41,801 bases of DNA from Minisyncoccota bacterium (GTDB taxonomy: Bacteria > Patescibacteriota > Minisyncoccia > Phycocordibacterales > UBA9973), in contig JAENWX010000002.1 of the NCBI GenBank assembly GCA_016649835.1, positions 1 through 41,801 on the forward strand. The letters run 5' to 3'. The notes beneath the pieces are model-generated. The model saw nothing but the letters and a program-made list of their open reading frames with translations, was not told where the DNA came from and searched no databases. Within the stretch, counting starts at the first letter, position 1. Every line of letters begins with the position of its first letter. A program made the translations under genes and the position numbers. Positions 11,469 to 29,405 of the stretch are shown here, piece by piece.

Positions 11469-11503
11469 AATTAGTCATTAGTAATTGGTAATAAGTAATT
11501 ATT
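11469..11503 (-). repeat. Heptamer array (AATTAGT CATTAGT AATTGGT AATAAGT AATTATT) overlapping the stop of the 11499 gene
   Basis: Read directly. Confidence 0.7.
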
Positions 11504-13001
11504 TGAGTTTCAACCCCCACAACGATGAATCTTTTTTGTTTATGAAGAATAGATTGCTTTCAGTTTTATCTAAAAATAAATGAGTTGCATCTATTGGAGT
11601 TTCTTTTCGGGAGTTTGCTATTGTTTCCCATTCCCCATTTACTGTATTAATCTTTATAAAATAATCAGTGAATGATGTTAGTCCTTGGTACCAAGAATCC
11701 GGATACTGGTTTCCAACTACAAGGTTTGGAATACCACAATAAACAGAAATACTATCAATACTCCAGACACATTTTTCAGGTAAACCATATTTATCCAAGT
11801 CGGTACTTATATGGTTACTTATATTAAAAATTTGTAGTTTTGGGCCTGTGGCTGTTGATATACTGTATAAAACAAGGGATCCGTTACGGTTTACAAGAGT
11901 AGTAAGGCCGGGAACTCCACCCATTATTTTAGTAGTAGTTTTACTAGATGCATTTAAAAGAAAGATGCTGCCGTTTGACACATATGAGGCTTTGTTTGTT
12001 AAATATATTCTTTGGTTATTGTCTATTTGTGATAACCATTCTGTAAAAGGAGAATTAAATATCATTTCTTTTTTTGTGTTTCCAAAAAAACCTAAGGTGC
12101 CAGCAGAGCCATTACTATTTCCTGTTAGATAAAAAAATTGAGTTTTATTTGGGGAAATACTAAAATCAAAAATATTTTGAGGTAGAAATTCTCCTTTAGG
12201 AGCGCCCAGTGTTGCCACAAAAGTATCAATCACTTTATTTTCAGAAAGATATCTGTAAACTACGGTCTTGCCTGTGCCGTCAAAAATAGCTTCATAAATA
12301 TTTGGAATAGTAGAGTTTGAGATTTTTTCTTTAGACTGTGTGTCTAAAAACATTTTATAAATATGACCATTTGCTCTCTCCACATATCTTATAGAAGGAG
12401 CTTCTTCTGTTTTTTCTGTGGGGATAACATTTTCTGTTGTTGTTGATTTTGTAAAGTAGGGAGCGGTTTCTGCATCTATAATTCCTGTTACTGTTAGACT
12501 GTTTAAAGTTTGAAATTCTTTTACTGCGTCTGTAACTTTCTTTCCAAAAGCTCCATCAACAACAAGTGGTGGACTAAGAGAAAGAGTCTCGTTTAAAATT
12601 TTTTGTATTTCTTTTCTTCCCTCTTTTGTATTTGGAGAGATAACAGTTTTAATAATTTCTTGTTGTGGGGCTACTTCGGCAGTAGTATCAACTACAACAG
12701 GTCTTGTGTCATCTAAAAAGGTCGCTCCAGCAACAGCAAAATCAGTTATTTGGTAAAACCTTGATACAGAAGTACCAGGTGTTTCTTCTCCTGGAAGTTG
12801 ACCGTCTATTGGTATCTCTCCGTCGGGTCCTGTTACCACATCACTACCAGTTCCAAAAGGATTAAAACTTTGGTACCAAGGAGTTGTCTCAGCTACATTC
12901 CCTGCTCCTTTGTCTTTATTCATCCAGAAAAAAACACCAAGGATAATAACTCCGACGAGAACAAATGTTGTTATAAAAATGATTATTGTTTTTTTAGGCA
13001 T
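11499..13001 (-). CDS. Membrane-anchored protein with a peptidoglycan-binding domain and a beta-rich (propeller-like) C-terminal region
   Basis: N-terminal TM; VVDGAFGKKVTDAVKEFQTLNSLTVTGIIDAETAPYF matches the PG_binding_1 pattern; last gene of the secretion-like cluster. Confidence 0.7.
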   Translation of the reverse strand: MPKKTIIIFITTFVLVGVIILGVFFWMNKDKGAGNVAETTPWYQSFNPFGTGSDVVTGPDGEIPIDGQLPGEETPGTSVSRFYQITDFAVAGATFLDDTRPVVVDTTAEVAPQQEIIKTVISPNTKEGRKEIQKILNETLSLSPPLVVDGAFGKKVTDAVKEFQTLNSLTVTGIIDAETAPYFTKSTTTENVIPTEKTEEAPSIRYVERANGHIYKMFLDTQSKEKISNSTIPNIYEAIFDGTGKTVVYRYLSENKVIDTFVATLGAPKGEFLPQNIFDFSISPNKTQFFYLTGNSNGSAGTLGFFGNTKKEMIFNSPFTEWLSQIDNNQRIYLTNKASYVSNGSIFLLNASSKTTTKIMGGVPGLTTLVNRNGSLVLYSISTATGPKLQIFNISNHISTDLDKYGLPEKCVWSIDSISVYCGIPNLVVGNQYPDSWYQGLTSFTDYFIKINTVNGEWETIANSRKETPIDATHLFLDKTESNLFFINKKDSSLWGLKLK

Positions 13002-13004
13002 AAT

Positions 13005-14258
13005 TTACCATTTTATTATATGATAATGATTTGGTTCACGCATAAATTGAGTTGTTCCTTTTAAAAATACAGGGAAGTTCATTCCGGTTGATTTTATTTT
13101 TGTTTTGCTTTCATCCACGTATTTTACCAATGAAGTAGTTAATCTTAAATCAACAAAACTATTTCCAGGCAGGTGTAGAGTTTTATTTGAGTGTAACCAA
13201 CATTCAGTCCCACCTGTGATTACTATATCACAGGATGGACAAGTACTTTTTTTTAAAGCAATAACACTACTAGTATTTAATCCAGCTAAACTTGTGCATC
13301 CACTTTGTCCAACTTTTGTACAATTAGGAGAATTAACTGTAATTCCAGCAGTAATAACTGCATCTCTCTCTTTTTTATCACTTGCCCACACATCACCGGA
13401 TGTATATTTACCATTACAATATTTACCACTAATAGCAGATTGAGGGGTATCACCATGAACTTCAGGATCTATAACAACGCTGACAGCCTTAATGGTTACT
13501 CCCCTCCCTCCCAGTAAGTCTGGGTTTATTGTGTTTAACAAAGCATATGAACCTAGGGCAATAAGTAATCCAAAGATAGCCTTAGTTATTCTGTCTTTAG
13601 CTTCTGTTTTTCCAAAAATAGATTCGTCTCCCATGTATTGTACTCCGCCAATAACTATCATAATAACAGCAAGTACAGCACATAAACCGAGAGCGATATT
13701 AAATATAGTATTAAAATATGAACCAATATCTTCTGGAGCAGTTTTAAACTCTCCAATTGGAGCGAGGAGTGTATATACCTTAGAATCAGAAGAAGTGTCT
13801 TCTGTTTGAGGTGTAAAGGTTACCGCTTCGTCAGCTGCAGCAGCTAAAATTTCTTCCTTTGTAACTTCTTTTTGAGCAGCAATTACCTCACTGTTTGCAG
13901 CAGCCCATACATCTCTGTTTATAACAGTTAAGTCTTTTTCTAGTTGAGTAGTATCTTGATTTTTTGATTTAGCTTCTGCTATTTTATCTTGATAGTCTTT
14001 TATAATAAGATTAATTTTATTTAAATTGGCCTTAGCCTCCTCTAATTTCTTTTGAGCAGCTTCTAACGTTGTTTCTGCGGTCACTATATTTTTTTCTAAA
14101 GAAACCCCACCCAAATGAGTAAAGACAACATTAAAAGGTAATAAAATATTTATAAATAATATAATTATTAAAAAAGAAAGTGATTGTTTTTTGATACCAC
14201 TATAAATAAATGATAATGAATTATTTTTTACTATTTTATTTTTGTTATTTATTTTCAT
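13005..14258 (-). CDS. VirB2/TrbC-like two-TM pilin module fused to a Cys-rich LAS (M15-type) zinc peptidase-like domain
   Basis: TM, coiled coil, then FNIALGLCAVLAVIMIVIGGVQYMGDES...AKDRITKAIFGLLIALGSYALL (two TM helices with a short loop). C-terminus ITGGTE...HLPGNSFVDL...EPNHYHI fits the H-x-D / H-x-H LAS signature. Confidence 0.6.
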   Translation of the reverse strand: MKINNKNKIVKNNSLSFIYSGIKKQSLSFLIIILFINILLPFNVVFTHLGGVSLEKNIVTAETTLEAAQKKLEEAKANLNKINLIIKDYQDKIAEAKSKNQDTTQLEKDLTVINRDVWAAANSEVIAAQKEVTKEEILAAAADEAVTFTPQTEDTSSDSKVYTLLAPIGEFKTAPEDIGSYFNTIFNIALGLCAVLAVIMIVIGGVQYMGDESIFGKTEAKDRITKAIFGLLIALGSYALLNTINPDLLGGRGVTIKAVSVVIDPEVHGDTPQSAISGKYCNGKYTSGDVWASDKKERDAVITAGITVNSPNCTKVGQSGCTSLAGLNTSSVIALKKSTCPSCDIVITGGTECWLHSNKTLHLPGNSFVDLRLTTSLVKYVDESKTKIKSTGMNFPVFLKGTTQFMREPNHYHIIKW

Positions 14259-14294
14259 GTTTTATTTTATAATGATTTTTAACAGAGATAAGTG

Positions 14295-15290
14295 CTATAT
14301 ATTTATCCTCAATTGGTTGGTAGCTGTCTGGAATAATTCAGAAATATTTTCAATTACAAAATTTATTGTAGCGTAGCCACCTCGTGATGCGGGGCGGATT
14401 GTTAACTCTGTTTTTTTGAAAGGAGTCTGAATACTCTCGTTGTTTATTTTCCAACTATAACTAAAGTCACTCTCATTCCCTTTTAGAGAAATAAAATATG
14501 GCTCAGCAACAACAGTCATTTCGTCTTCTGTCATAAATGTTTCTTTATTCAAAGCGTTGTTGTATAAAACTCCTTCTGTTGGTGACTTTTTATAAAAAAC
14601 CACCTTTGGTTTATATGTTGGTATTGTTATGGTATTTTCTGCTCCATAACTACCACCAACAGACGAGGCGGTAACTTTTATTTCATTAAGCTCATCAAAT
14701 ACACTGTTTTTAAAAACATAAGAATTTTTATTATAGCCAGAAGCAGCTAGAATAACTTCCCCATTGTTTTTCCAAGTATATGTAATACTACCACTACCAG
14801 ATTTTATTGTAGAAGTATTTGGTATTGCAACAACGCGAACAAATCCACCAGAAACAGGAAGGGCCTTCCCTCTATAAAAAGAAGGAACATATCCATCAAC
14901 AGATTCCCAGACAACTTCAACTTCAGAAGGAATTATTGCTATTTTTTTAATAAGAGTACTTACAGAACCCACCACTCGAATATTAACAGTAATAACACTA
15001 ACTATATCAGGACCTTTTGCCGTAAAAGAATAACTTGTTTTTCCTATTCCAGAAAGAACTGTTCCTGTTTCTGTTTGCCAAGTTATAATAGCTTTGTTTA
15101 GGTCGGTTGCGTAACTAGAAAGATTTATAGTTACATCTTGATATGGTTGTGGGTTGTTTGGAATAGTTTCTACGTTTATTTCCCCTTCTTGGACCTCAAT
15201 CTGGGTTTCAGCAATAGAAAAAGACGGTATATTTATTATTCCTAGAATAAAAATTCCAATTAGAAAAAGTTTTATTTTTGTAAATTTCAC
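14295..15290 (-). CDS. Secreted beta-sandwich repeat protein (hypothetical)
   Basis: Signal peptide; about three Ig-like repeats each with a Y-x-W-K-x-N-G/N-like motif. Confidence 0.6.
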   Translation of the reverse strand: MKFTKIKLFLIGIFILGIINIPSFSIAETQIEVQEGEINVETIPNNPQPYQDVTINLSSYATDLNKAIITWQTETGTVLSGIGKTSYSFTAKGPDIVSVITVNIRVVGSVSTLIKKIAIIPSEVEVVWESVDGYVPSFYRGKALPVSGGFVRVVAIPNTSTIKSGSGSITYTWKNNGEVILAASGYNKNSYVFKNSVFDELNEIKVTASSVGGSYGAENTITIPTYKPKVVFYKKSPTEGVLYNNALNKETFMTEDEMTVVAEPYFISLKGNESDFSYSWKINNESIQTPFKKTELTIRPASRGGYATINFVIENISELFQTATNQLRINI

Positions 15291-15333: not shown

Positions 15334-15368
15334 TAATTACTAATTACTAATTAATAATTAATAATTAC
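15334..15368. repeat. Heptamer array TAATTAC TAATTAC TAATTAA TAATTAA TAATTAC
   Basis: Read directly; lies between the VirB4-like stop and the next gene start. Confidence 0.7.
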
Positions 15369-15369
15369 A

Positions 15370-15431: not shown

Positions 15432-17264
15432 TTATTGAGTGTTCGCGGCCAGTAGTTCACTCTTGGCTTTTTTAATAGCAAGAATTTGTGATGGGTCAGA
15501 TGTTATAATCTGGTCCTCAGTATAAGAGGCAATTGTTTTTATGGCGACATGTTTTAATCCAGCAAAGAATATACCTTCTCCTACGTTTGCTTCAAGCAAT
15601 AGATATTTTTCTTCATCAGTAAGATTGAATGTTTTTTGAAGTACATCTATGGTTGCTGGGGATTGTTTTAAGAGCAACTGAATAGACGAGTTTGTAACAA
15701 TTGGAATACCATAAGGACTCTTCATAAAGTCCCCTACATCTTGGGTAATAGTAGCAAGTCCCAAGTAGTATTTACGTCCTCTTTTGGCGATAGAATATAG
15801 GAAAGAAGCAGTGTCTTCGGATTTCATCATCCACCAAGCCTCATCTACAACAAGAAGCCTTTTTTTAATATTTTTACGGATAGCATTCCATATATAATGA
15901 GTAATTATATACATAGCAACAGGTTTGAGCTCATCTTCCATGTCTCGAACAGAGAAAACAATAAACTTTCTGTTGATATCTACGTTTGATGGTTGGTTCA
16001 AAAAAGAAGACCAAGAACCGTGTGTAAACTTTACTAAACGTTGCATAAGAGATTCACTACCTTCCATTCCAGATAGAACCACTTCAAAGTCAGACAACAT
16101 TGGGGGTTCAATATTCATAAAATCAGAATCAGAAGTAATGTCTTTTAACGCATAGGTTTCAGTAATAGCTGCATCGATAATAGAATCCTCTTCTGGAGAA
16201 AGGCCTCCAAGCATTATTCTAAATAAACCAACAAGGTTTATAGTGTTTGCTCTTAGGACATCTGCGCCAGTTTCATCTCCGGTAGGTATTGGTAAATCAA
16301 AAGGATTTATGTGGTGGTCAGAAGAAAGAGCGATGTTGAAATATCTTCCTCCTACAGCTTCTGCAAGATACTCATATTCTCTTTCAGGGTCGATAACAAT
16401 AACCTCTGTATCAAACATCAGAGTACGAATAATTTCTAGTTTAGTGGCATAGGATTTACCCGCTCCAGCTGTCGCGAACGTAATAGAGTTGTAGTTTGGT
16501 AGAGAAAATCTATCAAAAAGAATTAGACTAGAATTGTGTCTGTTTACGCCATATAGTATTCCTTTGTCTTCAGTAAGGTCAAAGGAAACGAAAGGAAAAA
16601 TACTTGAAAGAGGTTCAGTATTGAGTTTTTGGTGTATTCCCAAAATATCAGTACCAAGAGGAATAACACTTTTAAATCCTTCGTTTTGTTGAAATAGAGC
16701 TGGTTTTAGATAAATAAGTTTTGAATCAAGAAGAGATTTTATTTCATTTTCTATTTTGAATAAATCATTATCGTTTTCTGCATAAACAGTAATATAAAGA
16801 CCAACATCAAACATTTTTTCTTGAGCCTGCATTAAGTTGTTTCTTAAATCTTCAAGATCTCTGTAGGCAGTGTCTAACATTGGGTCGCGGACTAGACCTT
16901 TTGACTCACGAATAGAAATCTGACTTTGAACCTCAGCTACTTTTTTCTGAAAAGACCTTAATATTTCTGCTGTATCAATAGGGTGTATAAAAATAGAAAC
17001 ATCAAAAACTTTATCTAGGTTTATGATAGGTGAAAACCAGTTATCAGTAAGATATCTAGGATATGATATAACAAAGAAAGTTCTAACTATTCTGTCTCCT
17101 AGGTTAAGAGACTTTGGTGTTATTTGAAGAGCAGAAGGAGCAATAATATCTTGAAGTTCTAGTGTTGCAGCTTTGTATATTTCGCTAGGCAAAATAGGCA
17201 TAACAACACTTTTGTTTTTGTTGATATCATCCCCTTTTCCTAATAATGATGAAAATATTCCCAT
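15432..17264 (-). CDS. virB4: VirB4/TraC/TrbE-like type IV secretion ATPase
   Basis: 610 aa; Walker A FATAGAGKSY; Walker B RLLVVDEAW; N-terminal VirB4-like domain (RTFFVISYPRYL...). Confidence 0.85.
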   Translation of the reverse strand: MGIFSSLLGKGDDINKNKSVVMPILPSEIYKAATLELQDIIAPSALQITPKSLNLGDRIVRTFFVISYPRYLTDNWFSPIINLDKVFDVSIFIHPIDTAEILRSFQKKVAEVQSQISIRESKGLVRDPMLDTAYRDLEDLRNNLMQAQEKMFDVGLYITVYAENDNDLFKIENEIKSLLDSKLIYLKPALFQQNEGFKSVIPLGTDILGIHQKLNTEPLSSIFPFVSFDLTEDKGILYGVNRHNSSLILFDRFSLPNYNSITFATAGAGKSYATKLEIIRTLMFDTEVIVIDPEREYEYLAEAVGGRYFNIALSSDHHINPFDLPIPTGDETGADVLRANTINLVGLFRIMLGGLSPEEDSIIDAAITETYALKDITSDSDFMNIEPPMLSDFEVVLSGMEGSESLMQRLVKFTHGSWSSFLNQPSNVDINRKFIVFSVRDMEDELKPVAMYIITHYIWNAIRKNIKKRLLVVDEAWWMMKSEDTASFLYSIAKRGRKYYLGLATITQDVGDFMKSPYGIPIVTNSSIQLLLKQSPATIDVLQKTFNLTDEEKYLLLEANVGEGIFFAGLKHVAIKTIASYTEDQIITSDPSQILAIKKAKSELLAANTQ

Positions 17265-17279: not shown

Positions 17280-17930
17280 TTATTGTAATTTAATTCCTTG
17301 ACTAGTGTCTCCGGGATTAAATGTTTTATAAAAAAGTTCGACAACCTGGTCTGTTTTTAATTGAGATGTTCTTATGCCTACTCTTCCAAGTCCACTCATA
17401 ATAACTCCAACTCTTTGGTCTAGCTGAGTTCTCTTTTCTTCAAATGAAGCCAAGTCCATTGCTTTTTTGGTCTCATCAATTTGTTTTTTTTGAGAACCGC
17501 CAAGAAGACTATCAACCATTGTGCTACCAGGTTTTATTAAAGAGGAACTATATGGGACAACAATAAAGAATGTTTTTGTCATTATATTTACTTCGTCTGT
17601 GAAAGATTTAATAAAATCTATATATTCTTTGGTTTGTATTTTTAAAAGAGGCTCTGCTTGTTCTTTGAGTCTACCCTCTAGCATTAGAAGATAAGGTCTG
17701 ATGTCTAGTCTACGAGACTGCATACATATCTGAGTAGGAAAATCTAACCCGTTTAAAAAATTTTGAAATTCGTTTACAATAGCAGCCTGCTCGTCGGCTG
17801 ATTTGAGAGAAAGGTTTAAAGAAGAAGCAATTAAAATTGCACGAAGACCACCATCTTTTAAAATGATGATACCGTTTCGGACTTCTTTAATTGGGACAAA
17901 TTCCTGAGAACTTTTTGCGCTGATTGCCAT
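17280..17930 (-). CDS. Stand-alone paralog of the VirB4/Tn916-Orf16-type N-terminal domain
   Basis: 216 aa; FVPIKEVRNGIIILKDGGLRAILIASSLNLSLKSADEQAAIVNEFQNFLNGL resembles the N-terminal region of Gram-positive VirB4 homologs; no NTPase motifs. Confidence 0.5.
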   Translation of the reverse strand: MAISAKSSQEFVPIKEVRNGIIILKDGGLRAILIASSLNLSLKSADEQAAIVNEFQNFLNGLDFPTQICMQSRRLDIRPYLLMLEGRLKEQAEPLLKIQTKEYIDFIKSFTDEVNIMTKTFFIVVPYSSSLIKPGSTMVDSLLGGSQKKQIDETKKAMDLASFEEKRTQLDQRVGVIMSGLGRVGIRTSQLKTDQVVELFYKTFNPGDTSQGIKLQ

Positions 17931-17936
17931 AAAGAT

Positions 17937-17971
17937 AATTACAAATTACTGATTACTAATTACTAATTTAA
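17937..17971. repeat. Heptamer array AATTACA AATTACT GATTACT AATTACT AATTTAA
   Basis: Read directly. Confidence 0.7.
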
Positions 17972-18006: not shown

Positions 18007-18065
18007 TATAATTCTTGATCGGTTTATTAAATATCAATCTTTTTAACCCATTACTAATTATTAAT

Positions 18066-18096
18066 CATGATTCAAAAGAATCACCCCATGGATTAA
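18066..18096 (-). repeat. Family C 3' hairpin motif
   Basis: Gene-sense TTAATCCATGGGGTGATTCTTTTGAATCA just downstream of the PrgI-like stop. Confidence 0.75.
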
Positions 18097-18114
18097 TTGT
18101 TAATTGTTAATTAT

Positions 18115-18534
18115 TTACTTCCCCTCCTCCCCCTTGTCTTGTACATCCAAACTCCAAGATAAATCTTTTAATTTATTTGTAGTTGTCATGGGTACAATAG
18201 ATACCAAAGGAAGAGCAGAAGGTTCCTCTTCTTTACCCTTTGTTCCTGGCTTAACTAGTCTTTGTCTCCAGATGTATAACTTACTTGAAACCAAATAATT
18301 TAGCCCAGCCTCAAGATAAAAAATAAAAGGCTTCTCATTTATTTTATAAAAAACAAGTAGAAAGGTAAGTACTGCAAAAGGAATAATGAAAAAAATACCA
18401 ATCCATAAAGGAAATATTTTATAAAGCACAAAAACTATACCAGCTCCTCCAATAAGGTATATGAACTGACGAAAAGTAAAAGGACCAAATAGTTTATCCT
18501 CAACATCAATAAATTGTGGTACTTTGAATTGCAT
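18115..18534 (-). CDS. PrgI-family (VirB3-like) small membrane protein
   Basis: MQFKVPQFIDVEDKLFGPFTFRQFIYLIGG followed by two TM helices; start moved to the Met at 18534. Confidence 0.7.
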   Translation of the reverse strand: MQFKVPQFIDVEDKLFGPFTFRQFIYLIGGAGIVFVLYKIFPLWIGIFFIIPFAVLTFLLVFYKINEKPFIFYLEAGLNYLVSSKLYIWRQRLVKPGTKGKEEEPSALPLVSIVPMTTTNKLKDLSWSLDVQDKGEEGK

Positions 18535-18558
18535 ATGATAATAATTACTAATTAACAA

Positions 18559-18587
18559 TTAATCCAGGGGGTGATTCTTTTGAATCA
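18559..18587 (+). repeat. Family C hairpin motif (opposite orientation to the flanking genes)
   Basis: TTAATCCAGGGGGTGATTCTTTTGAATCA. Confidence 0.75.
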
Positions 18588-18651
18588 TGATTACTAATTT
18601 AAAAACAATAACACTACTTTAATCTATTATACTATATAAAAACAAAGTTAC

Positions 18652-19023
18652 TTAACGGTTTTCTTTTGTGGTTTTTTGAATTGCAGTTAATAATTTCAAT
18701 ATTATGGTTATTCCCTCGATATAAACATTAAACTCTTCTTGTGTTATATATTTTCCACCCAATAATAATTTTAACCAATATTCAGTTTCCCTAGCCTCTT
18801 TGTATGAAATAGATATTTTTGATATAAAATCATTTCTTGATTGAGCTCCTATTGATTCCTCTATATTTGCCCCAATAGAAGTACCTGATCTTAAAATTTG
18901 CTTAGATAATACAAATTCATTTCTTTTGATAAGTTTTTTATATAATTCAATTATTAATAAAGCAAAATCAAAACTTTTTTGTTGAATTATATTCTCTCTC
19001 ATTATTATTTGTTTTAATTCCAA
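18652..19023 (-). CDS. Four-helix-bundle protein (23S rRNA intervening-sequence protein / Avd-like family)
   Basis: SKQILRSGTSIGANIEES...YKEARETEYWLKLL is the hallmark of this family; the start could instead be the Met at 19002. Confidence 0.85.
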   Translation of the reverse strand: MELKQIIMRENIIQQKSFDFALLIIELYKKLIKRNEFVLSKQILRSGTSIGANIEESIGAQSRNDFISKISISYKEARETEYWLKLLLGGKYITQEEFNVYIEGITIILKLLTAIQKTTKENR

Positions 19024-20178: not shown

Positions 20179-22719
20179 TTATTTTTTCTCATCTTTTATT
20201 CCAGCTAAAATTTTGTTTGAAGCTTCTCTTTCTCCCCTAAAAGAATGTTGACCTCCTGAGACTACAAAATTAACGGCCTGTGACCACCCTCCTCTATTTG
20301 AAGCAGCATAATTTTCTCTTGTTGTTCTGTTTTTGGATATAACTGCATTTTCAGCATTTTTAACCAATCTTTCTGCGGCGTTAATTGGGCCTTGGGCATC
20401 TGCAAGGGCCTTTTGAATTCCTTCTAGTTTTTCTCTTGTGCCTCCAGTACCATCTCTTCCTCCAACTCCTTTTACTCCATTAATTAAATCATCTCTAACT
20501 GTTCTTGCTCTTGCTGCTGCCGGTTTATTACCAGAATCAACAGCATCTTTTAATGTTCTTTCTGCTGCTGCAATAGCTCTTTCTGATGCCGCAAGAGCTT
20601 TTTCTGCTCCGCCAATTGCAGCAGTTTGTGTTATTATTTCATCTTGTCTATTTACAGAATTCCCATTTGAATCTGTTATTTTTTGGTTTTTTATAACATC
20701 AAGATTGTTTTGGGCGGCATAAACATTTTGTTTTAGTGGTGAATCTTCTCCCACCTCAAGGTCTTTCATTCTCTTTTGTCTCTTTTCAACATGTTCTGCG
20801 CGTGCTTTTGTAAATCCACCCTCTTTTGCTTTTCCGAGGTCTACACCAAGGCTTTTACCTGCAGCAGCTCCAGCTTTGGTTGCACGAGCATCAAAACTTC
20901 CTTTCCCTGCAGCTGTCCCAGTCTTTAATAGCATCTTTGCTGCAAAACCACCAGGGCCACCCTTTGCCTCCATTGCTTTTAGCCTGTCTGAACTAGCAAC
21001 CGCACTTCCAAGTCTTCCCACTGTACCTCTCATTGCAAATGCTGCACCACCTGTCATTGCTCCAACAGCTAGCCCACCAACAACCCCACCCGCCTTAGAC
21101 AAGGATGCTCCTATTTCACCAGACATACTAACAGCAACGTCTTTTGCCTTCATGAGAAGAATCATAATAAATGCAAATGGAACTATAATTTTTATAATCC
21201 AACCTAATCCGCTAACTATCTCTCCGGTTGGGGTTTTAAATGCATCCATAACTCCTAATCCCTTTCCCATAAATCCAACAATTAAATACATAAAGAAAAC
21301 AAAAACAGGAGCTACAAAAGCCATTTTTAATAAATTGGGCCACCATTCCTTCCACCCAATCATTTTAATTCCTTGCATTTGAGGGACAATATAACTAAAG
21401 AAAGCAAGAGGGGCAACTATCATTGAAAGCCAAAGCATCACAACTCTACCTATAAAAATAAGAGCTGTAGATGTGAAAGCAATGATTCCAACTATGTTAA
21501 CTATTGTTGCGAGAAAAACAATTAAAAAGAAACTAGTAAGTGGAATGTCTCCAGTCATAACATTAGTATTTCCAGTGTCAAAACCCGACGATGCTGGTTT
21601 TGCCCTGCTGATCTCCCTAGAGTTTATGATAAGGTTCTGTGGATTAACGCCTGAAACTATTGCCGTTGATAGTTGAAGTTCTCCATATTCACCAAGCACA
21701 CTTGTAACTTTTGTAGACTTGCCATTCTCGTCTTTTTGGGTAATTATTATAGTTTTATCATTATAAAAAACCCTCGCTAAAATATTGGAGGCATCTATAA
21801 CAACCTGTGTGGTAAATAAACTAAAGTTTATAAGAAGGCCTATAATGACTACGTTGATAATCATTTCTTTTGTCTTAACGCTACTTAGATTTAAAATAGT
21901 ACCAAAAGCTATATAAAGTAAAACGAAAATAAAGAATATATTACTAAAATCTTTTACTACTTCCCATCCACTAGTGACAAATTCTGAACGATAAGCCATG
22001 TCACTAATAGAATAATATAAAGTAAAGTCTAAGGCCTTACCAGCAATAGCAAAAACTGCAGACGTTGTTGCAAAAAATAAATAATAAAATCCTTGAGCTA
22101 AACATCCCATAGGGGTGCCAGGAGCACCCAATAATCCACAAGCTGGAAGAGCTCCAGGGCTTTCTGGCTCAACTCCACCTTCGGCACCAGCATTACCATC
22201 AGGAACTAAATCTTGGTCGTATGTTTTATCTGTGCCAGGATTAATTGTTACAACATTACTGTCTATTCGAACGGAGTCCTTCATAATAACAATTTTTACA
22301 TAGTATTCAATTCCTATTACCGTATCAGCAACAGCTGTGGCATCTGAGTAAGTATTTATTTTTTTAGTAGATATATTATAGGTAGTATATTCTCCTTCAA
22401 CCTTAGAAGGAGAAGAAAAACTAAGATTCTCCGTTCCAACTTTTACACCTCCAAAAGTTTCTTTTGTGCTTACAAAATATAATATTTCAGCACCTGCAAG
22501 CTGGTCCTTTTCTGAGGTCAACATTTTAAGACTTCCCGAAACACTAATTACAGGAGAGTTGTCATTTTGGGTTGCAAAAACAACAAGTGTTTTTTCTGCA
22601 GCATGAGCAGTATTTTTTTGTATTGCTATATTATTTTTTACTCCAGTACCAACAGTAAATGGCGCAAATAATTGCACTACAATAAAAAATATTAGAATGT
22701 ATGGTAAGAATTTTTTCAT
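20179..22719 (-). CDS. Large polytopic membrane protein, VirB6/TrbL-like candidate, with an Ala/Gly/Lys-rich C-terminal tail
   Basis: Signal peptide, about 190-aa extracytoplasmic domain, at least 6 TM helices, about 300-aa low-complexity coiled tail; located next to the PrgI-like and VirB4-like genes. Confidence 0.55.
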   Translation of the reverse strand: MKKFLPYILIFFIVVQLFAPFTVGTGVKNNIAIQKNTAHAAEKTLVVFATQNDNSPVISVSGSLKMLTSEKDQLAGAEILYFVSTKETFGGVKVGTENLSFSSPSKVEGEYTTYNISTKKINTYSDATAVADTVIGIEYYVKIVIMKDSVRIDSNVVTINPGTDKTYDQDLVPDGNAGAEGGVEPESPGALPACGLLGAPGTPMGCLAQGFYYLFFATTSAVFAIAGKALDFTLYYSISDMAYRSEFVTSGWEVVKDFSNIFFIFVLLYIAFGTILNLSSVKTKEMIINVVIIGLLINFSLFTTQVVIDASNILARVFYNDKTIIITQKDENGKSTKVTSVLGEYGELQLSTAIVSGVNPQNLIINSREISRAKPASSGFDTGNTNVMTGDIPLTSFFLIVFLATIVNIVGIIAFTSTALIFIGRVVMLWLSMIVAPLAFFSYIVPQMQGIKMIGWKEWWPNLLKMAFVAPVFVFFMYLIVGFMGKGLGVMDAFKTPTGEIVSGLGWIIKIIVPFAFIMILLMKAKDVAVSMSGEIGASLSKAGGVVGGLAVGAMTGGAAFAMRGTVGRLGSAVASSDRLKAMEAKGGPGGFAAKMLLKTGTAAGKGSFDARATKAGAAAGKSLGVDLGKAKEGGFTKARAEHVEKRQKRMKDLEVGEDSPLKQNVYAAQNNLDVIKNQKITDSNGNSVNRQDEIITQTAAIGGAEKALAASERAIAAAERTLKDAVDSGNKPAAARARTVRDDLINGVKGVGGRDGTGGTREKLEGIQKALADAQGPINAAERLVKNAENAVISKNRTTRENYAASNRGGWSQAVNFVVSGGQHSFRGEREASNKILAGIKDEKK

Positions 22720-22896: not shown

Positions 22897-23033
22897 TTTA
22901 CTTTTAAACCTCGTTTACGTTATCTTTTTTTATAACAAAGCTCTTTTATTATAACAAATTTTCTATAAAACCTTCATTTTTAAAACTTTTTTCTTAACCT
23001 GCCTGCTGGTTATTAATAAGTAATTAGTAATTG

Positions 23034-23062
23034 TGATTCAACAGAATCACCCTATGGGTTAA
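23034..23062 (-). repeat. Family C 3' hairpin motif
   Basis: Gene-sense TTAACCCATAGGGTGATTCTGTTGAATCA downstream of the 23078 stop. Confidence 0.75.
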
Positions 23063-23077
23063 TCATTAATTACTTTC

Positions 23078-25543
23078 TTACCAAATATTAAGGATTTTTT
23101 CGTATTCCTTTATATTTGTTATATGGGTCCAAGTACAGCCAGTATTATTAAGATCTGAACCATAAGTTTCACAACTAACTTGTGTTTTTTGAGCAGGACA
23201 ATCGGTCTTGTATGTTCCTGAGCCAAAAATACTAATAGCAGCAGTATGTTCACCGTCACCAGTACATGTGCTGATACCTGTTTTAACATCATTCTCAATA
23301 TAAGAACCTCTATCCTCATATTTATACCAAGGGTTACCAAATCTTAATGTTGGTCCTGTATACCCAGGGTTTTTAGCACCTGTTTTTGTAACAGTTTGCG
23401 CATAGCATTGGTTTGTAAGGTCGTCTACCGCCCCAATAAAAGTTTTATAGGTTTCAATTTCTCTATAGGCTAAGGTTATATCAGCTTCTGTTTTAAGAGT
23501 TGGTGCTATGATATAAAATTTACGTAGAAGCTCTGCAAGTTTTGCTTGTTCTACTTCATTGAAAGTTAGAGGATTTTGCTCTATATATAAACATTTGTTT
23601 TCTTCATAAACTACTGGAGTTATAGGAAAGCTTAATTCAGAATAATGATTTGGCACATAGGCTTTGTTTAAATCACCGTCCATATGACATTCTGGGTCAA
23701 AGTTATCTATTTTACCATCATTATCATTGTCAAAAGCATCGTTACATTGATACAGGGTTACGGGAGAAGTAGACTCAGAGTCGTGGTCGGGTACATACTC
23801 ATTATTTATGTTTCCATCATAGTGACAGTTTGGATCTAGTTCATCTATTTTACCATCAGTGTCGTTGTCTTTAGAGTCAGAACATTGTTTTTGTCCATCA
23901 GGTGGATTAATAGAATCTTTTACTGTAAATGTTGTCCATGCTCCGCAGTTATTATTTTCATTAATTTCAGTTATTGTACCAGCATCTCCTCCTGTTTTTT
24001 TATCAGCACAAGCTCTTATATAATACGTACCAGACTTTGTAAAAGTATGAGTTGCCTTTGCGGTGCTACTAGTTCCTGGAGATAATGCTAGTGTGTCAAC
24101 TACTAATTCGATATTATTTGCAGCGTCTGTTTGAGCTTCATCTGGACTGGTTTCTGTAATTGTAAAAAAACTAGAAAAACCAGAAACAGTTGAACCTTCA
24201 CCATCATTTCGGATTAAAGAGTTAAGTATTGTGGCTGTGTCTATAAGAGTGCTTGAAGGAGTAACAAATCCAGCTACTAAATCTGGCTCACCACTAGTAA
24301 TAATAATTGATTCAGAAAAATGATTTGCTATATAAGCTTTATTTAAATCTCCCCCTATGTGGCAAGCAGAATCTTGTTCGTCAGTAGTTGTATCTCCGTC
24401 GTTGTCTATGCCGTCACTACACTCTGGACTTATTCCAATATTTCCAACTCTGACAAAAACATTACCACTACCAAATCCTATATTACCAAGACAAGTAACT
24501 GCATATGATTTACTAAGAGTAAGGGTTCCAGTGTTAAAGGAGCCACTTGTTTCTGTGCTGTTTCCTGCTCCAGCATTACATGAAGTTGTGTTTACTGAAG
24601 TCCAACTAACAGTAGAAGATGCCCCAGATGCGATAGATGAAGGACTAGCTGTAACAGTAACAGAGGGGAAAAGGTTGGTGCCTCCCCTGACAACAACATA
24701 AGCATTGTCGCTACTTGAACCGTTCTCTCCTGTACAAATAATGGTATATGAGCTGCTATCTGTAAGTGCGCCTGTTTCAAATGAACCAGTTGTGCCTATC
24801 TCTACGCCGTCACCTTTATTACATGATGTTGTATTTTCTGAAGACCAACTAATAGTAGAAAATTCTCCAGGTCCTATTAAAGAAGGACTAGCTGTAACAG
24901 TAACTGAAGGGAAAAGATTTATTCCACTAGTACAATCTGGAGGGTTTGTTGCTCCGTTTAGGCAAGAGCCACTTGGGAGAGTCCATGTATTGGTAATAGG
25001 ATCAAAAAACCAACCCTCTCCTGGAGGAGGAGTCCAAGTGTTAGTAGTAGAGTCAAAAACCCAACCCTCTCCTGAAGGAGGAGTCCAAGTGTTGGTAATA
25101 GGATCAAAAATCCATCCTTCTCCTGGGGATTGTGGGGTTGTTTTAATATTGAAAACATCATTTATAAAACCAGAAAATGAATCCCAAAAAGTATTTGTTC
25201 CTCCGTCGTTAATCATAAATTCTCCAAGTTCACCGCTTTGTATGTCTTGATTGGCAAAACCAAAGTCGGCACTATCTGATTTCCTATAAATAGGATTGCC
25301 ATTCGCGTCTGTGCCAGAAAAGACTACTCCATCCCCTTTTTTCAAATCCCCGTCAGATAAACCTACTGTTAATTTTGCATTACTTGATGGAGTTAATGGA
25401 CTAAAAAGTTTAGCAATGCTTGTTGAAGTTTTAACACCAAAAGAATCTCTATTTTTATAGATTAAATAGCCGGCTATTATAAGTAAAACAACAACAATTA
25501 ATGTTATTATTAGCGCTTTACTTTTTTTAGGTTTATTTTCCAT
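23078..25543 (-). CDS. Giant membrane-anchored surface protein (adhesin-like)
   Basis: N-terminal TM. 3x GEGW(I/V/F)FD..TNTWTPP repeats (24971-25129). 2x ~78-aa Ig-like repeats NLFPSVTVTASPS... (24446-24922). CARDB-like domain ending ITEINENNN. 3x C-x-D-x-x-D-N-D-x-D-G...D-P-x-C-H...Y(V/I)xxH modules. Confidence 0.7.
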   Translation of the reverse strand: MENKPKKSKALIITLIVVVLLIIAGYLIYKNRDSFGVKTSTSIAKLFSPLTPSSNAKLTVGLSDGDLKKGDGVVFSGTDANGNPIYRKSDSADFGFANQDIQSGELGEFMINDGGTNTFWDSFSGFINDVFNIKTTPQSPGEGWIFDPITNTWTPPSGEGWVFDSTTNTWTPPPGEGWFFDPITNTWTLPSGSCLNGATNPPDCTSGINLFPSVTVTASPSLIGPGEFSTISWSSENTTSCNKGDGVEIGTTGSFETGALTDSSSYTIICTGENGSSSDNAYVVVRGGTNLFPSVTVTASPSSIASGASSTVSWTSVNTTSCNAGAGNSTETSGSFNTGTLTLSKSYAVTCLGNIGFGSGNVFVRVGNIGISPECSDGIDNDGDTTTDEQDSACHIGGDLNKAYIANHFSESIIITSGEPDLVAGFVTPSSTLIDTATILNSLIRNDGEGSTVSGFSSFFTITETSPDEAQTDAANNIELVVDTLALSPGTSSTAKATHTFTKSGTYYIRACADKKTGGDAGTITEINENNNCGAWTTFTVKDSINPPDGQKQCSDSKDNDTDGKIDELDPNCHYDGNINNEYVPDHDSESTSPVTLYQCNDAFDNDNDGKIDNFDPECHMDGDLNKAYVPNHYSELSFPITPVVYEENKCLYIEQNPLTFNEVEQAKLAELLRKFYIIAPTLKTEADITLAYREIETYKTFIGAVDDLTNQCYAQTVTKTGAKNPGYTGPTLRFGNPWYKYEDRGSYIENDVKTGISTCTGDGEHTAAISIFGSGTYKTDCPAQKTQVSCETYGSDLNNTGCTWTHITNIKEYEKILNIW

Positions 25544-25578: not shown

Positions 25579-28485
25579 TTATTTACAATCCGGGTCTAGT
25601 TTGTCTATTAATCCATCCAAATCATTATCTATGTTGTCAAAACATCTCTTTGATTCATCTCCTCCCGTATCGTTCATTATATCTGACGCATCATAGTAAA
25701 ATATATCTTCTTCTTCAAAACACTCTGCATATTTTGTTTTGTATTGTGTGACAGTTAGTACTCCCCCTGCTTCTTGGATACAACTATTGTATTCTGATAA
25801 ACATTGAGCTGTAGGAATAGAACTATTATTACAATCTATCTGAGAATTTTTACAAGTAGATACTTGTAGGTTGTGTAATTCATTTATTTGAGTCAAGAGT
25901 CTTGCGTCACGGCGGGCTTGAGCAGCCTTTATTATTTTACTGACTTCACTTTTAATAGCGTTTAGCTTAAGAGTGTTTGATTCAGCAAGAATTATATTAG
26001 CGCGATAGTCTTCTATTGCATCAAGAGTGTCTTCGTTGTAATTTATAATATCTTTTGTAAAACTATATCCATCATTTACCATAGGCAAATAATCCTTGTT
26101 TGCTACTAGTTCTGGTCTGTTTTCTATTTCTTTGAATTCAGACTGCATTGTTTTATAAACACCATTGAAAACAGTTGTCGCATATTCTTCAAAAAATACT
26201 CTAGTGTCATTTTGAATAGAATTTACAAGGTCGTCAATTAGTTTGGATGCTTTATCTTCTGACCTATCTTTTTTTACCTTTCCAACATTACCTAAAGTTT
26301 GTAAAGCTTTCCAAGGCATGGAGTTTTGAATAGCAGACCAAAGAGTGTTTGACCATGGAACAGGATTTTGTTTTAACCATATATTTTGAGGTCTCATAAA
26401 TATATTTCGGTAATCATCATAAGCATATTGACCTGGTTCTGCAATTGAGAAAGTACTGGTATCTCTTTTGAATAAAGAACCTTCTTTATATGAAGACTGT
26501 AGAGATCCAGCATAGTCGTTGAATAAAGCAGCGGTGTCTCCGCTATTTGCTGCAAAATATGGATTTGGTCCTGGTATACAGTAGTCTAACTCTCCTAGTT
26601 TTGGCATTATACTAGGTAGTATTTTTAGAATTTCTTTTGCTGAAACCACATAATCTTTTTGGTTTTGTATGACACCTCTAATTGCAATAGGACTAGCAAC
26701 TCCTTTTTTCCAGTTTTGCCATTCTTGACCATTCCAATATGCCCTGTCTCCAACTGCCCAGCCGGAGTATCCATTATTGAAAAGTTTTGTATCCCCTCCG
26801 CGTGACACGGTATAGTATGATTGAGTACAATATCCAGTACATTTTTTATCATACGGAGCAAGTCCAACATGAAGCTCTGGAATATTGGTGCTAGCATTCC
26901 AACTGCCAAGATTTATAGTATCGCTGTGGTCAAATGTATTTCCTAAGTCACGAGTAAGGTCAAATTCTGCATTTATGTATCCTTCAGAGTCAGAACCGTA
27001 GTCGAAATTACCATCATATCCAACTCCAATATTGGAGCCATAACCGCCAGCTCCCATGTTGTCGTTTCCGTTATAAGAATATCCTTCTTGTGAAAGACCA
27101 AAAAGCCCTTCATTTCTGAAATTTTCTATAAGAGAAGTAAACAAACTATTTAGTGATTTATTTATAGTGTCAGCAAGCTCAAGTTGGCGCTCTGGTGAGT
27201 TTATGTAAGTAGAAAGTTTATCTTTAATAATACTTCCAGGGGTCACTACGTTCCAACTACCTGGTACACAAACATCAAAGTCGCTAGTTTTTGTTTTGCT
27301 ATATTTGTTTTTGTCTGAAGTAGCAGTGTCAAAAGCATATTTGGGACTTACTGCGGGCTTTCCTTCTTTCTCGTATACTTGCCATTTTGTACATGTCTTC
27401 TGGCTCAGAAAACCGTTGTTTTGAGCAAGTTCTTCTTTGGTCTCGTTTGCTTGGCGGTTTATATTGTCGGCTATTCTTTGGGTTGCGAGCATTGTAAATC
27501 CAAGAGGATTGTTTGCTTCTCTTTGTGTTAATGCCATATATCCATCCCAACCACCACAAGAAAAATCATTGGCAAAACAGTCGTTTGCATCTTGAGCTCT
27601 TTGTTTGGCAGTTCTTTCTTTTGATTCAATACTAGAACCTATTCCAAGAGAAACAGGGTCTGTAATAAAAGCAGCTAAATCAGAAGTAAGATTACCCAAA
27701 AAGTTATTAGCTCCGTTGTCTATACCACCGGATCTAGACTGTCGGACTAAAGACATAGAGAAGTCACTACCATAAGGAAAGGCTCCATAAGCAAGCTGTT
27801 CCACTCCTCTTTCTAAAACATTTTTACCAATACTATTTGTAAGAGATGTAATATTTTGAACGTAAAGTGGATTTCCGTTGAAACCACTGTTGACCCAGTT
27901 GATAGTCTGGCGAGTCATTGAGGTTAGTTGGTTTTTAGCCAGAGTATAAGCTAGTCCGTTGAAGCACTTTTCTCTTTCTTCTGCAGCTTCTAATTTTTTA
28001 TTGGTTTCTTTTTGTTGTTCTTCTGTTTTAGGGGCATCTGTTGTCTGAACTGGATCACAATTTATAGCTTCATTAGCTGCAGGAGCAAAATTTGTACCAA
28101 CTTTATCCACAAAAGCAAGAGCTTGGACTACTGTGGTTTTCACCGCCGTACACATAGTCCTTTTTGCATCATCTCTTGCTCTCCCTTTCCAAATTTTCTG
28201 AATCTCTTTACTCGCTTGGTTTTTAAGAAAATCTGTTGTAACAATAGTTAATTTGTCTACAAGGCCGGTACATCCAACAACCTTCATCATTGTTTGAGAA
28301 TTTAAAAGGGCGTCAGTATTTATTTTATAAGGATTTTTTGAGTTACTGTTTGGGTTGTCCCAATTTAAACCACCACTAACAGCAGATGCGGTAGTGGGTA
28401 AAATAAATTGCGAAAAAGTTACAAATAATGAAAAAACAAAAATTGCTGAAATTATTTTTGACACAATTTGTTTTTTATCTTTCAT
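25579..28485 (-). CDS. Giant secreted/surface hypothetical protein ending in the same CxDxxDNDxDG module
   Basis: 968 aa; N-terminal signal/anchor; C-terminal RCFDNIDNDLDGLIDKLDPDCK; no other recognisable domain. Confidence 0.65.
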   Translation of the reverse strand: MKDKKQIVSKIISAIFVFSLFVTFSQFILPTTASAVSGGLNWDNPNSNSKNPYKINTDALLNSQTMMKVVGCTGLVDKLTIVTTDFLKNQASKEIQKIWKGRARDDAKRTMCTAVKTTVVQALAFVDKVGTNFAPAANEAINCDPVQTTDAPKTEEQQKETNKKLEAAEEREKCFNGLAYTLAKNQLTSMTRQTINWVNSGFNGNPLYVQNITSLTNSIGKNVLERGVEQLAYGAFPYGSDFSMSLVRQSRSGGIDNGANNFLGNLTSDLAAFITDPVSLGIGSSIESKERTAKQRAQDANDCFANDFSCGGWDGYMALTQREANNPLGFTMLATQRIADNINRQANETKEELAQNNGFLSQKTCTKWQVYEKEGKPAVSPKYAFDTATSDKNKYSKTKTSDFDVCVPGSWNVVTPGSIIKDKLSTYINSPERQLELADTINKSLNSLFTSLIENFRNEGLFGLSQEGYSYNGNDNMGAGGYGSNIGVGYDGNFDYGSDSEGYINAEFDLTRDLGNTFDHSDTINLGSWNASTNIPELHVGLAPYDKKCTGYCTQSYYTVSRGGDTKLFNNGYSGWAVGDRAYWNGQEWQNWKKGVASPIAIRGVIQNQKDYVVSAKEILKILPSIMPKLGELDYCIPGPNPYFAANSGDTAALFNDYAGSLQSSYKEGSLFKRDTSTFSIAEPGQYAYDDYRNIFMRPQNIWLKQNPVPWSNTLWSAIQNSMPWKALQTLGNVGKVKKDRSEDKASKLIDDLVNSIQNDTRVFFEEYATTVFNGVYKTMQSEFKEIENRPELVANKDYLPMVNDGYSFTKDIINYNEDTLDAIEDYRANIILAESNTLKLNAIKSEVSKIIKAAQARRDARLLTQINELHNLQVSTCKNSQIDCNNSSIPTAQCLSEYNSCIQEAGGVLTVTQYKTKYAECFEEEDIFYYDASDIMNDTGGDESKRCFDNIDNDLDGLIDKLDPDCK

Positions 28486-28520
28486 AAATAATTACTTATA
28501 GTATATCACCTTATTATTGT

Positions 28521-29405
28521 TTATTGCAAAATTTCATTAAGTATTTCAAAGTCTGAACCAATGGCGTCTGTGTATTTTTTATAATTAAGAAGGGCTCTCA
28601 TTCCAATAATTGGATCTGTGATAATTTGAGTTAGTCCTTCTACAGATTGAGCTACTTTTTCATAGTTGTTTGATAGGCTCATATGGGAAAGAGCTGCAGA
28701 GCTTGGTACGGGTATAGATATTAACTCTCTTCCAAATAGTCTATATGCTGTCGCTACTGTTCTTGCTGCATATAATGCTTGGGGGTCTTGGTCTACTATT
28801 CCCTGAGAAACAAGAGTTAGCTCACTACCTAGGTCGCTGTCTTGATATTTTTCTAGAAGACCAATAAAAGCAAAAAAATATTCAGTATCTGATTCGTCAG
28901 AGTCTTTTTGGATATTTAACATGTCTCTTGTATAAACATCTGGAATATTTGTAGGTTTTATGGTCTGTCCAATAGAACTAGAAATAGAATTAATAGCCTC
29001 GTCGTCTAGCTGGCCTGTTTGCTGTAAGGACATGATTGTTGCAAAAAACTGACGAGAGAGTAGGTCATTTTCTGTTATGGCCTTAGAATCATCAGAAATT
29101 GTTATAATTCCATTTTGTTCTAAGGTTTTTTTCTTGGCTAGGATGAATTCTTTATTTTCTGGCCCATTTTCAAAAGGGTCAAGACCCCAAATGCGCTCTT
29201 CCCAGTCACTGATGCCGTTTTTGTTGCCATCTTCTTGAAGAAGAGTCTCAATAGTTAGTTCAATTGGCTTATCTTTAGAACCATCTTTGTCTGAAAAAAA
29301 AGTGATGGCTCCTTTTATAGTAAAAAAAAGAAGTATTATTACTAAGATAAATAAAACAATTGTTATAAATTTTTTACTTGGAAGATAATTTTTAAAATTA
29401 TTCAT
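28521..29405 (-). CDS. Membrane-anchored hypothetical protein with a thrombospondin-type-3-like Ca-binding motif
   Basis: N-terminal TM; DGNKNGISDWEERIWGLDP. Confidence 0.6.
   Translation of the reverse strand: MNNFKNYLPSKKFITIVLFILVIILLFFTIKGAITFFSDKDGSKDKPIELTIETLLQEDGNKNGISDWEERIWGLDPFENGPENKEFILAKKKTLEQNGIITISDDSKAITENDLLSRQFFATIMSLQQTGQLDDEAINSISSSIGQTIKPTNIPDVYTRDMLNIQKDSDESDTEYFFAFIGLLEKYQDSDLGSELTLVSQGIVDQDPQALYAARTVATAYRLFGRELISIPVPSSAALSHMSLSNNYEKVAQSVEGLTQIITDPIIGMRALLNYKKYTDAIGSDFEILNEILQ

Follow-up and report, generated by a model that had tools for sequence, protein, structure and literature searches.

A probable Patescibacteria-type type IV secretion locus beside the replication genes of a Paceibacteria genome

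Background

The saccharibacterium Southlakia epibionticum has a Gram-positive-like type IV secretion system (T4SS) that is essential for epibiotic growth, as determined by transposon insertion sequencing; its pilins are essential too, and neither a coupling protein nor a relaxase is recognisable in it (Wang et al. 2023, PMC10633639). A survey of the Patescibacteria (Quinonero-Coronel et al. 2025, PMC12102498) located VirB4 in 2,417 of 3,035 genomes, as a monophyletic clade nested in the MPF-FATA systems, with TrsD, PrgI/VirB3, VirB6 and VirB2-like pilins encoded near virB4 across the phylum and relaxases in only 103 of the genomes surveyed. In the Paceibacteria and Microgenomatia, the neighbourhood of virB4 includes dnaA, dnaN, rnpA, ksgA and rpmH (PMC12102498). 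Here we describe an 18-kb gene cluster with similar features, located within a 41.8-kb stretch of DNA from a Minisyncoccota bacterium (contig JAENWX010000002.1, positions 1 to 41,801; hereafter the window).

The Patescibacteria system was listed as a new member of the T4SS superfamily in a 2025 review (PMC12857230). Its role was called "completely unknown" in a 2024 perspective that raised nucleic-acid uptake (PMC11665869), and a 2026 preprint describes tube-like structures, maybe T4SS pili, at the interface between a cultivated relative and the host on whose RNA it feeds (10.64898/2026.06.21.733656).

A split VirB4 motor and its membrane partners

The cluster, from a Paceibacteria/Nomurabacteria genome, is very probably the known chromosomal T4SS of the Patescibacteria (candidate phyla radiation), which derives from the MPF-FATA conjugation machinery of monoderms. 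Systems of this kind were published in 2023-2025, and the window adds no new kind. The cluster consists of twelve co-directional open reading frames (ORFs) on the minus strand at 11499-29405, here numbered g1 to g12 in the direction of transcription (Table 1); the gene order given in an initial annotation, made from the nucleotide sequence without database searches, was confirmed, as were its assignments of a VirB4-like ATPase and a PrgI/VirB3-like protein, both of which score above family cutoffs.

The VirB4 ATPase, g9, matches the CD1110 family model NF045971 with 364.7 bits (cutoff 325, E 1e-108) and PF19044 with E 3e-24, and has intact Walker A (GAGKS) and Walker B (VVDEAW) motifs. Among proteins of known structure it matches the Gram-positive VirB4 4ag5 (E 1e-38) and TrwK of plasmid R388 (E 5e-5). 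The protein encoded directly upstream, g8, matches NF045975 (E 2.7e-8, profile positions 102-233) and the TrsD model NF041427 (E 7e-6), both below the curated cutoffs, and has a precomputed PF26593 (TraC-like) tag. Because g9 aligns only with positions 183-734 of NF045971 and g8 covers positions 2-119 of the same profile, the two constitute a split VirB4, of which g8 is the detached N-terminal domain of TrsD type. The description of g8 as an N-domain paralogue of VirB4 was therefore right as to the domain and wrong as to the paralogy.

The small membrane protein g7 matches PF12666 with 38 bits (cutoff 27) and TcpE with E 8e-5; its real start may be an ATG eight codons downstream of the TTG. 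The AlphaFold2 model of the polytopic membrane protein g4 (pLDDT 74) begins with a signal peptide and a beta-sandwich, continues through six long membrane helices and ends in a helical domain of about 270 residues. Its top Foldseek matches among 350,542 PDB chains are 8rt9_F and 8rtd_L, both TrwI/VirB6 of R388 (E 0.079, prob 0.97, TM-target 0.43); no match reached E 1e-3. Sequence searches of Pfam and NCBIfam gave no hidden Markov model (HMM) match, and a 62-sequence profile retrieved only coiled-coil noise from the PDB. A precomputed PF19590 tag on some relatives of g4 could not be reproduced with a local copy of Pfam, and no mention of it was found in publications. The earlier VirB6-like label is thus weakly supported, and g4 is best called a candidate VirB6-like protein on the strength of its model.

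Conservation of the locus among the Paceibacteria

Relatives were sought by scanning one genome per species for VirB4, and 593 were confirmed in species-representative genomes. The best 80 of these 593 (75-96% identity) are all from metagenome-assembled genomes of Patescibacteria, labelled Paceibacteria, Nomurabacteria or Parcubacteria; the VirB4 of RAAC4_OD1_1 is 87% identical. Synteny was compared across 43 loci with full 10-kb flanks, all of which are collinear in the order KsgA-g1-g2-(g3)-g4-g5-(IVP)-PrgI-TrsD-VirB4-g10-pilin-g12-Jag-YidC-RnpA-DnaA-DnaN-PBP, where IVP is the intervening-sequence protein discussed below and PBP a penicillin-binding protein. VirB4, TrsD, PrgI and g4 are each present in 43/43 loci, g10 and g12 each in 42/43, g11 in 41-42/43, and g5 in 29/43; g2 and g1 were found in 38/43 and 32/43, counts that are limited by the 10-kb flank. 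The surface protein g3 is the variable slot of the locus, since it is detectable in only 13/43. This is a clean Paceibacteria example of the system, in which a single variable surface slot accompanies a conserved core of ten genes: g1, g2, g4, PrgI, TrsD, VirB4, g10, pilin, g12 and, less conserved, g5.

Median identity across these loci is 59% for TrsD and 79% for VirB4, compared with 64% for DnaA, a comparison biased by the choice of loci according to VirB4 similarity. As the same gene order recurs across dozens of Paceibacteria species, the locus appears to be resident and vertically inherited; the sequence comparison fits purifying selection and does not fit an integrative and conjugative element (ICE). 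The initial annotation had likewise proposed a resident, minimised T4SS of Gram-positive type that lacks DNA-processing genes and serves an episymbiont at the cell surface, and not a conjugative element, and this is upheld by the family assignments, the flanking core genes and the strict collinearity, besides being the published interpretation (PMC10633639; PMC12102498; PMC12857230).

A pilin slot with alternative C-terminal domains

The predicted pilin, g11, comprises a signal/anchor, an extracellular coiled-coil hairpin (residues 62-141), a VirB2-like pilin hairpin (178-244), a linker and a Cys-rich globular domain (about 270-417). It had been described as a fusion of pilin and peptidase. 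The pilin part holds, at 26.9 bits against PF18895 (T4SS_pilin; cutoff 26.6), with E 0.04 against TrbC; the peptidase part was not confirmed, searches for it having been negative or marginal. The C-terminal domain is modelled with pLDDT >90 and is common to about 50 database proteins. Its invariant residues are H356, H362, D370, E408, H413 and four cysteines, with the spacing H362-x7-D370 and E408-x2-H411-x-H413. The ligands of LAS/M15 zinc peptidases are H-x(n)-D and H-x-H on the LAS fold. No fold or family was assigned to the domain by phmmer, by a profile search of the PDB, or by Pfam searches with the domain and 22 relatives, and Foldseek searches of the PDB and BFVD with the whole g11 model gave nothing significant, coiled-coil matches being dominant. 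Alignment by hhalign with the VanY, NlpC/P60 and YkuD domains of paralogous fusions also gave nothing significant (for VanY, 27% probability and E 7e-4). The initial annotation had counted a wall hydrolase among the components of the machine; for the pilin fusion of this genome such a role is putative, being suggested by its positional orthologues.

These orthologues are diverse. Database relatives of g11 retain the PF18895 hairpin and vary in the partner domain, which is VanY, NlpC/P60, YkuD or SLT. When the ORF between g10 and g12 was examined in 68 related species (loci L002-L081) together with that of the window, 56 of the 69 proteins matched T4SS_pilin (PF18895). The partner domains were NlpC/P60 (11/69), VanY (9/69), YkuD (5/69), SLT types (5/69), Peptidase_M15_4 (3/69), Amidase_5 (2/69) and Extensin-like_C (1/69), and in some species the pilin in this slot has no add-on domain. 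We tentatively suggest, while holding it to be the less probable outcome, that the single VirB2-like pilin of the Paceibacteria is a modular carrier, in which the membrane hairpin is kept and the extracellular C-terminal domain is exchanged among at least five unrelated peptidoglycan-active folds, the H/H/D/E/H Cys-rich domain of this genome being one more. Fusions of pilin and wall enzyme go unmentioned in the main text of the 2025 survey, which infers that pilus biogenesis is independent of VirB1 (PMC12102498); the occurrence of alternative wall-enzyme domains at a fixed pilin slot may be unreported before. If the suggestion is true and the fusions are functional, the pilin would carry a wall-cutting enzyme that the T4SS thereby displays or delivers. 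This would account for the "missing VirB1", and the enzyme chosen could be suited to the cell wall of the host and so set the host range. The fusions offer a way to test how a Gram-positive-type T4SS with a wall-less pilus copes with two cell walls.

Surface, secreted and accessory proteins

More than half of the coding capacity of the cluster is devoted to secreted or anchored repeat proteins, the pilin and wall-binding modules, and the earlier statement that most partners have no recognisable family was borne out. The TSP3-like label of g1 is weak: the orthologue consensus is DTDGDGIxDWEExLWGxDP, of which DTDGDGIxDWEE is the part in question, with no Pfam or NCBIfam match and an empty PDB profile search. 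The secreted protein g2 matches NF033662 with E 2e-5, below the cutoff; its 247 full-length relatives, all unnamed, form an orphan family (about 1000 aa) confined to Paceibacteria-type genomes, for which there was no Pfam match, even in scans of individual members, and only coiled-coil noise in a PDB search with the orthologue profile. The variable protein g3 matches CARDB (E 8e-7) and NF033662 (66 bits, cutoff 41), and its gene contains repeats detectable at the DNA level (D1, D4).

The three internal repeats of g10 have the consensus W..NG...SG.GK.S..F and are possibly Ig-like, as the initial annotation had it. This label is weakly supported, by Ig_3 matches in 5/70 orthologues (best E 0.002); the g10 protein of the window matched no family, and its orthologue profile yielded nothing usable from the PDB. 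The peptidoglycan-binding domain predicted in g12 is confirmed (PG_binding_1, PF01471, E 1e-11), and the predicted propeller in its C-terminal half is weakly supported by an orthologue profile that retrieved only TolB propellers from the PDB (best E 0.0027); among 66 orthologues, PD40 matches in four and PG_binding_1 in eight.

The acidic protein g5 has no membrane segments and is therefore probably cytoplasmic. It is poorly conserved except for a C-terminal DPY(RE) motif, in which D362, P363 and Y364 are invariant among 49 orthologues; the protein matched no family in Pfam or NCBIfam, and neither a PDB search with the orthologue profile nor Pfam scans of individual members gave anything usable. 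The conserved DPYRE tail suggests a docking peptide.

Mechanism and alternative explanations

By analogy with S. epibionticum, the machine would move macromolecules between symbiont and host in support of an epibiotic lifestyle, and would not serve conjugation. A VirB4 hexamer would dock on PrgI and the extended VirB6-like g4 to form a translocon in the cytoplasmic membrane, and the pilin hairpin would be pulled from the membrane into a short pilus or stalk. The extracellular C-terminal domain of g11 and the peptidoglycan-binding, TolB-like g12 would act on peptidoglycan, either that of the cell itself or that of the host, standing in for the missing VirB1. The Cys-repeat or acidic-repeat proteins g1-g3 and g10, secreted or anchored, would serve as adhesins or span the wall, g3 being the variable component that faces the host. 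The traffic may be export of effectors, or import of DNA, RNA or nutrients.

Several points weigh against this interpretation. The VirB6 assignment depends on a sub-threshold structural match and on context, and a VirB8-like protein was not identified in the cluster. Essentiality of the T4SS is known from one saccharibacterium and extends to the Paceibacteria by analogy, and a cell-wall-enzyme role for the C-terminal domain of g11 is putative in this genome. The window appears to be an entire contig, as its pilin protein is recorded on one contig of 41,801 bp, so that a distant relaxase or coupling protein elsewhere in the same genome is possible; most Patescibacteria genomes are reported to have VirD4-like genes, usually far from virB4 (PMC12102498).

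The best-placed alternative, although an unlikely one, is that the machine imports nucleic acids, in the manner of ComB in Helicobacter or Ced in the Sulfolobales; the T4SS and pilus would then draw host DNA or RNA into a cell unable to make nucleotides. It accords with the lack of a relaxase or coupling protein in the window, with the location of comM and uvrD/pcrA a few genes away, with the proposal of uptake as a candidate role (PMC11665869), with the link drawn in the 2026 preprint between T4SS-like tubes and acquisition of host RNA by a cultivated relative (10.64898/2026.06.21.733656), and with the presence of comF, recG and radA alongside the locus in the class ABY1 (PMC12102498). However, the match to the CedB model (NF041017) is 28.6 bits where the cutoff is 700, neither CedA nor outer parts of ComB type were found, and import has never been demonstrated in the clade. 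In S. epibionticum the T4SS is essential while ComEC-dependent transformation is dispensable (PMC12857230), which separates the T4SS from competence and leaves other uptake routes possible.

It is less probable still that the cluster is mainly an organelle of attachment or wall remodelling, in which VirB4 powers only the assembly of a pilus or adhesin and no substrate is translocated. The share of the coding capacity given to surface proteins, the function of VirB4 in driving pilus biogenesis (PMC12102498) and the lack of a coupling protein for substrate recruitment would all suit such an organelle, but PrgI and the VirB6-like channel component are kept at every locus compared, and Patescibacteria already use type IV pili for adhesion (PMC10633639). 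That the cluster is an ICE, or the decayed remnant of one, lying near dnaA by chance is highly implausible: the VirB4, PrgI and TrsD families are typical of ICEs and plasmids of the Firmicutes, and a DksA/TraR-type zinc-finger gene lies nearby, but the window has no integrase, relaxase, type IV coupling protein (T4CP), tRNA gene or direct-repeat borders, housekeeping genes adjoin both ends of the cluster, its motor genes are intact and highly conserved, its G+C content is like that of the flanks, and its position and order are identical in dozens of species in which DnaA has diverged to about 60% identity, the site being the same in at least 40. The macromolecule-transfer apparatus of the Patescibacteria is the preferred interpretation.

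Chromosomal setting

The genes at the lower-coordinate flank of the cluster are ruvB, ruvC, tyrS, a class A PBP gene, dnaN, dnaA, rpmH, rnpA, yidD, yidC and jag; those at the higher-coordinate flank are ksgA, uvrD/pcrA, an M23/LysM peptidase gene, comM, a DksA/TraR zinc-finger protein gene, and genes for PNPase and an NYN protein. The spacer between dnaA and dnaN contains four DnaA boxes, two of them perfect, within 156 bp. Location of the cluster beside the oriC region, as stated in the initial annotation, rests on dnaN-dnaA, rpmH, rnpA, yidD, yidC and jag together with the DnaA-box cluster. GC skew was dropped as a locator of oriC, as it tracks gene strand throughout the window. If the DnaA-box cluster is oriC, then the T4SS cluster, ksgA and uvrD (11499-32815) are transcribed toward the origin, head-on to the rightward fork.

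The window is about 33% G+C, and the compositional likeness of the cluster to its neighbours that had been claimed was verified (0.30-0.38 in the cluster, 0.25-0.37 in the flanks). The same was true of the claimed absences of VirD4, VirB11, relaxase, integrase and tRNA: profile searches of all ORFs of at least 80 aa in the 41.8-kb window found no members of the relaxase, VirD4/TcpA, VirB11, integrase or transposase families, and a scan of the 41.8 kb found no tRNA genes. A repeat search of the window found no direct-repeat borders at the cluster edges, and an Rfam search of the whole window gave zero matches. The negatives for relaxase and coupling protein cover the window alone.

The 3' end of the cluster is marked by a terminator-like hairpin (stem 19 bp) that lies where jag and g12 converge. 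The scan flagged only the plus strand, but a stem-loop like this would form on either. Past the other end, at a distance of about 5-7 kb, are comM, encoding a helicase associated with natural transformation, and the DksA/TraR-type zinc-finger gene. Both are possibly relevant to a DNA-uptake reading, yet both are common housekeeping genes.

Table 1. Features of the window, with coordinates in nucleotides from its first position
Feature	Coordinates	Strand	Length	Description
g1	28521-29405	-	294 aa	Conserved first gene of the locus; N-terminal membrane anchor, one TSP3-like acidic Ca-binding-type motif (label weak), helical domain
g2	25579-28485	-	968 aa	Secreted protein; one acidic double-disulfide repeat at the C-terminus
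g3	23078-25543	-	821 aa	Anchored surface protein; 17-aa repeats, two ~81-aa repeats, CARDB, three acidic double-disulfide repeats
g4	20179-22719	-	846 aa	Extended polytopic membrane protein, VirB6-like (weakly supported; AlphaFold2 model and Foldseek)
g5	19058-20164	-	368 aa	Acidic protein; no membrane segments, no family match
g6	18652-19023	-	123 aa	Four-helix-bundle protein of the 23S rRNA intervening-sequence protein (IVP) family
g7	18115-18558	-	~140 aa	PrgI/VirB3-like small membrane protein (PF12666)
g8	17280-17930	-	216 aa	TrsD-like protein, directly upstream of virB4
g9	15432-17264	-		VirB4 ATPase of monoderm MPF-FATA, CD1110-like type, without its own N-domain
g10	14295-15290	-	331 aa	Secreted beta-rich protein; three internal repeats
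g11	13005-14258	-	417 aa	Pilin fusion (PF18895)
g12	11499-13001	-	500 aa	Last gene of the cluster; membrane anchor, PG_binding_1, TolB-like beta-propeller (weakly supported)
DnaA boxes	7659-7814		156 bp	Four boxes in the dnaA-dnaN spacer
rpmH	9317-9457			Lower-coordinate flank
yidD	9827-10033			Lower-coordinate flank
Terminator-like hairpin	11423-11463			19-bp stem; convergent gap jag/g12
comM	34479-36050			Higher-coordinate flank
DksA/TraR-type zinc-finger gene	36097-36459			Higher-coordinate flank
Heptamer arrays	1111-1145, 6442-6476, 10031-10051, 11416-11429, 15334-15368, 17936-17969, 18542-18562, 19034-19054, 23014-23033, 34303-34330, 34451-34485			(AATTANN)n
Intergenic element	11377-11428, 18056-18115, 18540-18599, 23021-23072		52-60 nt	Four near-identical copies

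An IVP gene and repeated intergenic sequences

The gene g6, noted at first as an inserted four-helix-bundle gene, is confirmed as such by PF05635 (E 1.6e-28) and TIGR02436 (E 8e-30). It is an accessory passenger at a recurrent slot, and neither a part of the T4SS nor a one-off insertion: an ORF of the IVP family is present in 16 of 81 related loci (L024, L032, L033, L038, L039, L044, L047, L050, L055, L056, L058, L060, L062, L070, L076 and L080), nearly always between g5 and prgI. A link of this IVP/bAvd-like gene to diversity-generating retroelements was rejected, as the window has no reverse transcriptase and the bAvd match reached only E 0.007.

Arrays of the heptamer (AATTANN)n, for example TAATTACTAATTAC, are located directly at gene boundaries and beside terminator-like hairpins, with 46 matches in the window where 0.6 are expected, and place stops in each of the six frames. 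In the window they lie on either side of the IVP gene, and they do so at its closest homologues too, including ones at metagenome loci outside T4SS contexts; of the related loci, only those with a close homologue of the IVP gene of the window have arrays. The stronger proposition that arrays always accompany IVP genes was weakened by 12 of the 16 IVP-bearing related loci, which have none. The recurrent IVP slot, with arrays beside the closest relatives, may be unreported before.

An intergenic element with the palindromic core GGTGATTCT[G/T]TTGAATCA, flanked by AATTANN heptamer arrays, has all four of its near-identical copies inside the T4SS cluster and a degenerate copy near 1140-1170. The copies form two inverted pairs, one flanking prgI (93% identity) and the other bracketing g12 to g4 (96%, 11.6 kb apart). 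The element was found at none of the 80 related loci, not even the one whose VirB4 is 96% identical. Candidate identities are an operator, an element of the REP (repetitive extragenic palindromic) or MITE (miniature inverted-repeat transposable element) type, and a substrate for inversion.

Comparison with known systems

The Patescibacteria T4SS belongs to a handful of machines whose necessity for an epibiotic lifestyle has been demonstrated in a very large, mostly uncultivated radiation, and the value of the window is in the functional question that concerns the whole clade and in the modularity of pilin and wall enzyme as a lead. Among T4SSs in general, ComB of H. pylori and Ced of the Sulfolobales resemble the present cluster in being T4SS-derived, relaxase-free and non-conjugative in use, but match it in no family, and ComB-type counterparts of VirB7-10 were not found here. 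The likeness to the inner-membrane complex of the MPF-T systems (Trw of R388, VirB of Agrobacterium) is seen in VirB4, which matches TrwK, in the g4 model, which resembles TrwI/VirB6, and weakly in the pilin, which resembles TrbC/VirB2. The cluster differs from these systems in lacking VirB5 and VirB7-11 and in its split VirB4, and g4 is three times the length of TrwI, with an additional N-terminal beta-sandwich and a long helical tail.

The conjugative MPF-FATA systems of monoderm bacteria (Prg/Pcf of pCF10, Trs of pGO1, the CD1110 family of CTn2 and the mycoplasma ICE) are closer: the best VirB4 models are CD1110 and Mbov_0397, the TrsD, PrgI and TcpE families match, and neither they nor the present cluster have outer-membrane core proteins. 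Unlike them, this cluster is without a relaxase, T4CP, oriT, recognisable VirB8-like protein (PrgL/TcpC) or separate hydrolase gene of the PrgK/TraG type, has a VirB2-like pilin, which Gram-positive systems lack, and is chromosomally fixed and not mobile.

In the saccharibacterial locus of S. epibionticum (SEML1_0006-0019, PMC10633639), six small pilins are arrayed after virB4 with separate peptidase and lysozyme genes, whereas in the present cluster the only pilin gene also encodes a coiled coil and a globular C-terminal domain, and its set of large secreted proteins (g1-g3, g10 and g12) is specific to the Paceibacteria. With the Patescibacteria T4SS as a whole (PMC12102498; PMC10633639) the cluster shares a chromosomal location with no relaxase and no nearby coupling protein, a VirB4 of MPF-FATA ancestry with adjacent TrsD, PrgI/VirB3, a candidate VirB6-like protein and a PF18895 pilin, and, as in other Paceibacteria, the adjoining genes dnaA, dnaN, rnpA and ksgA.

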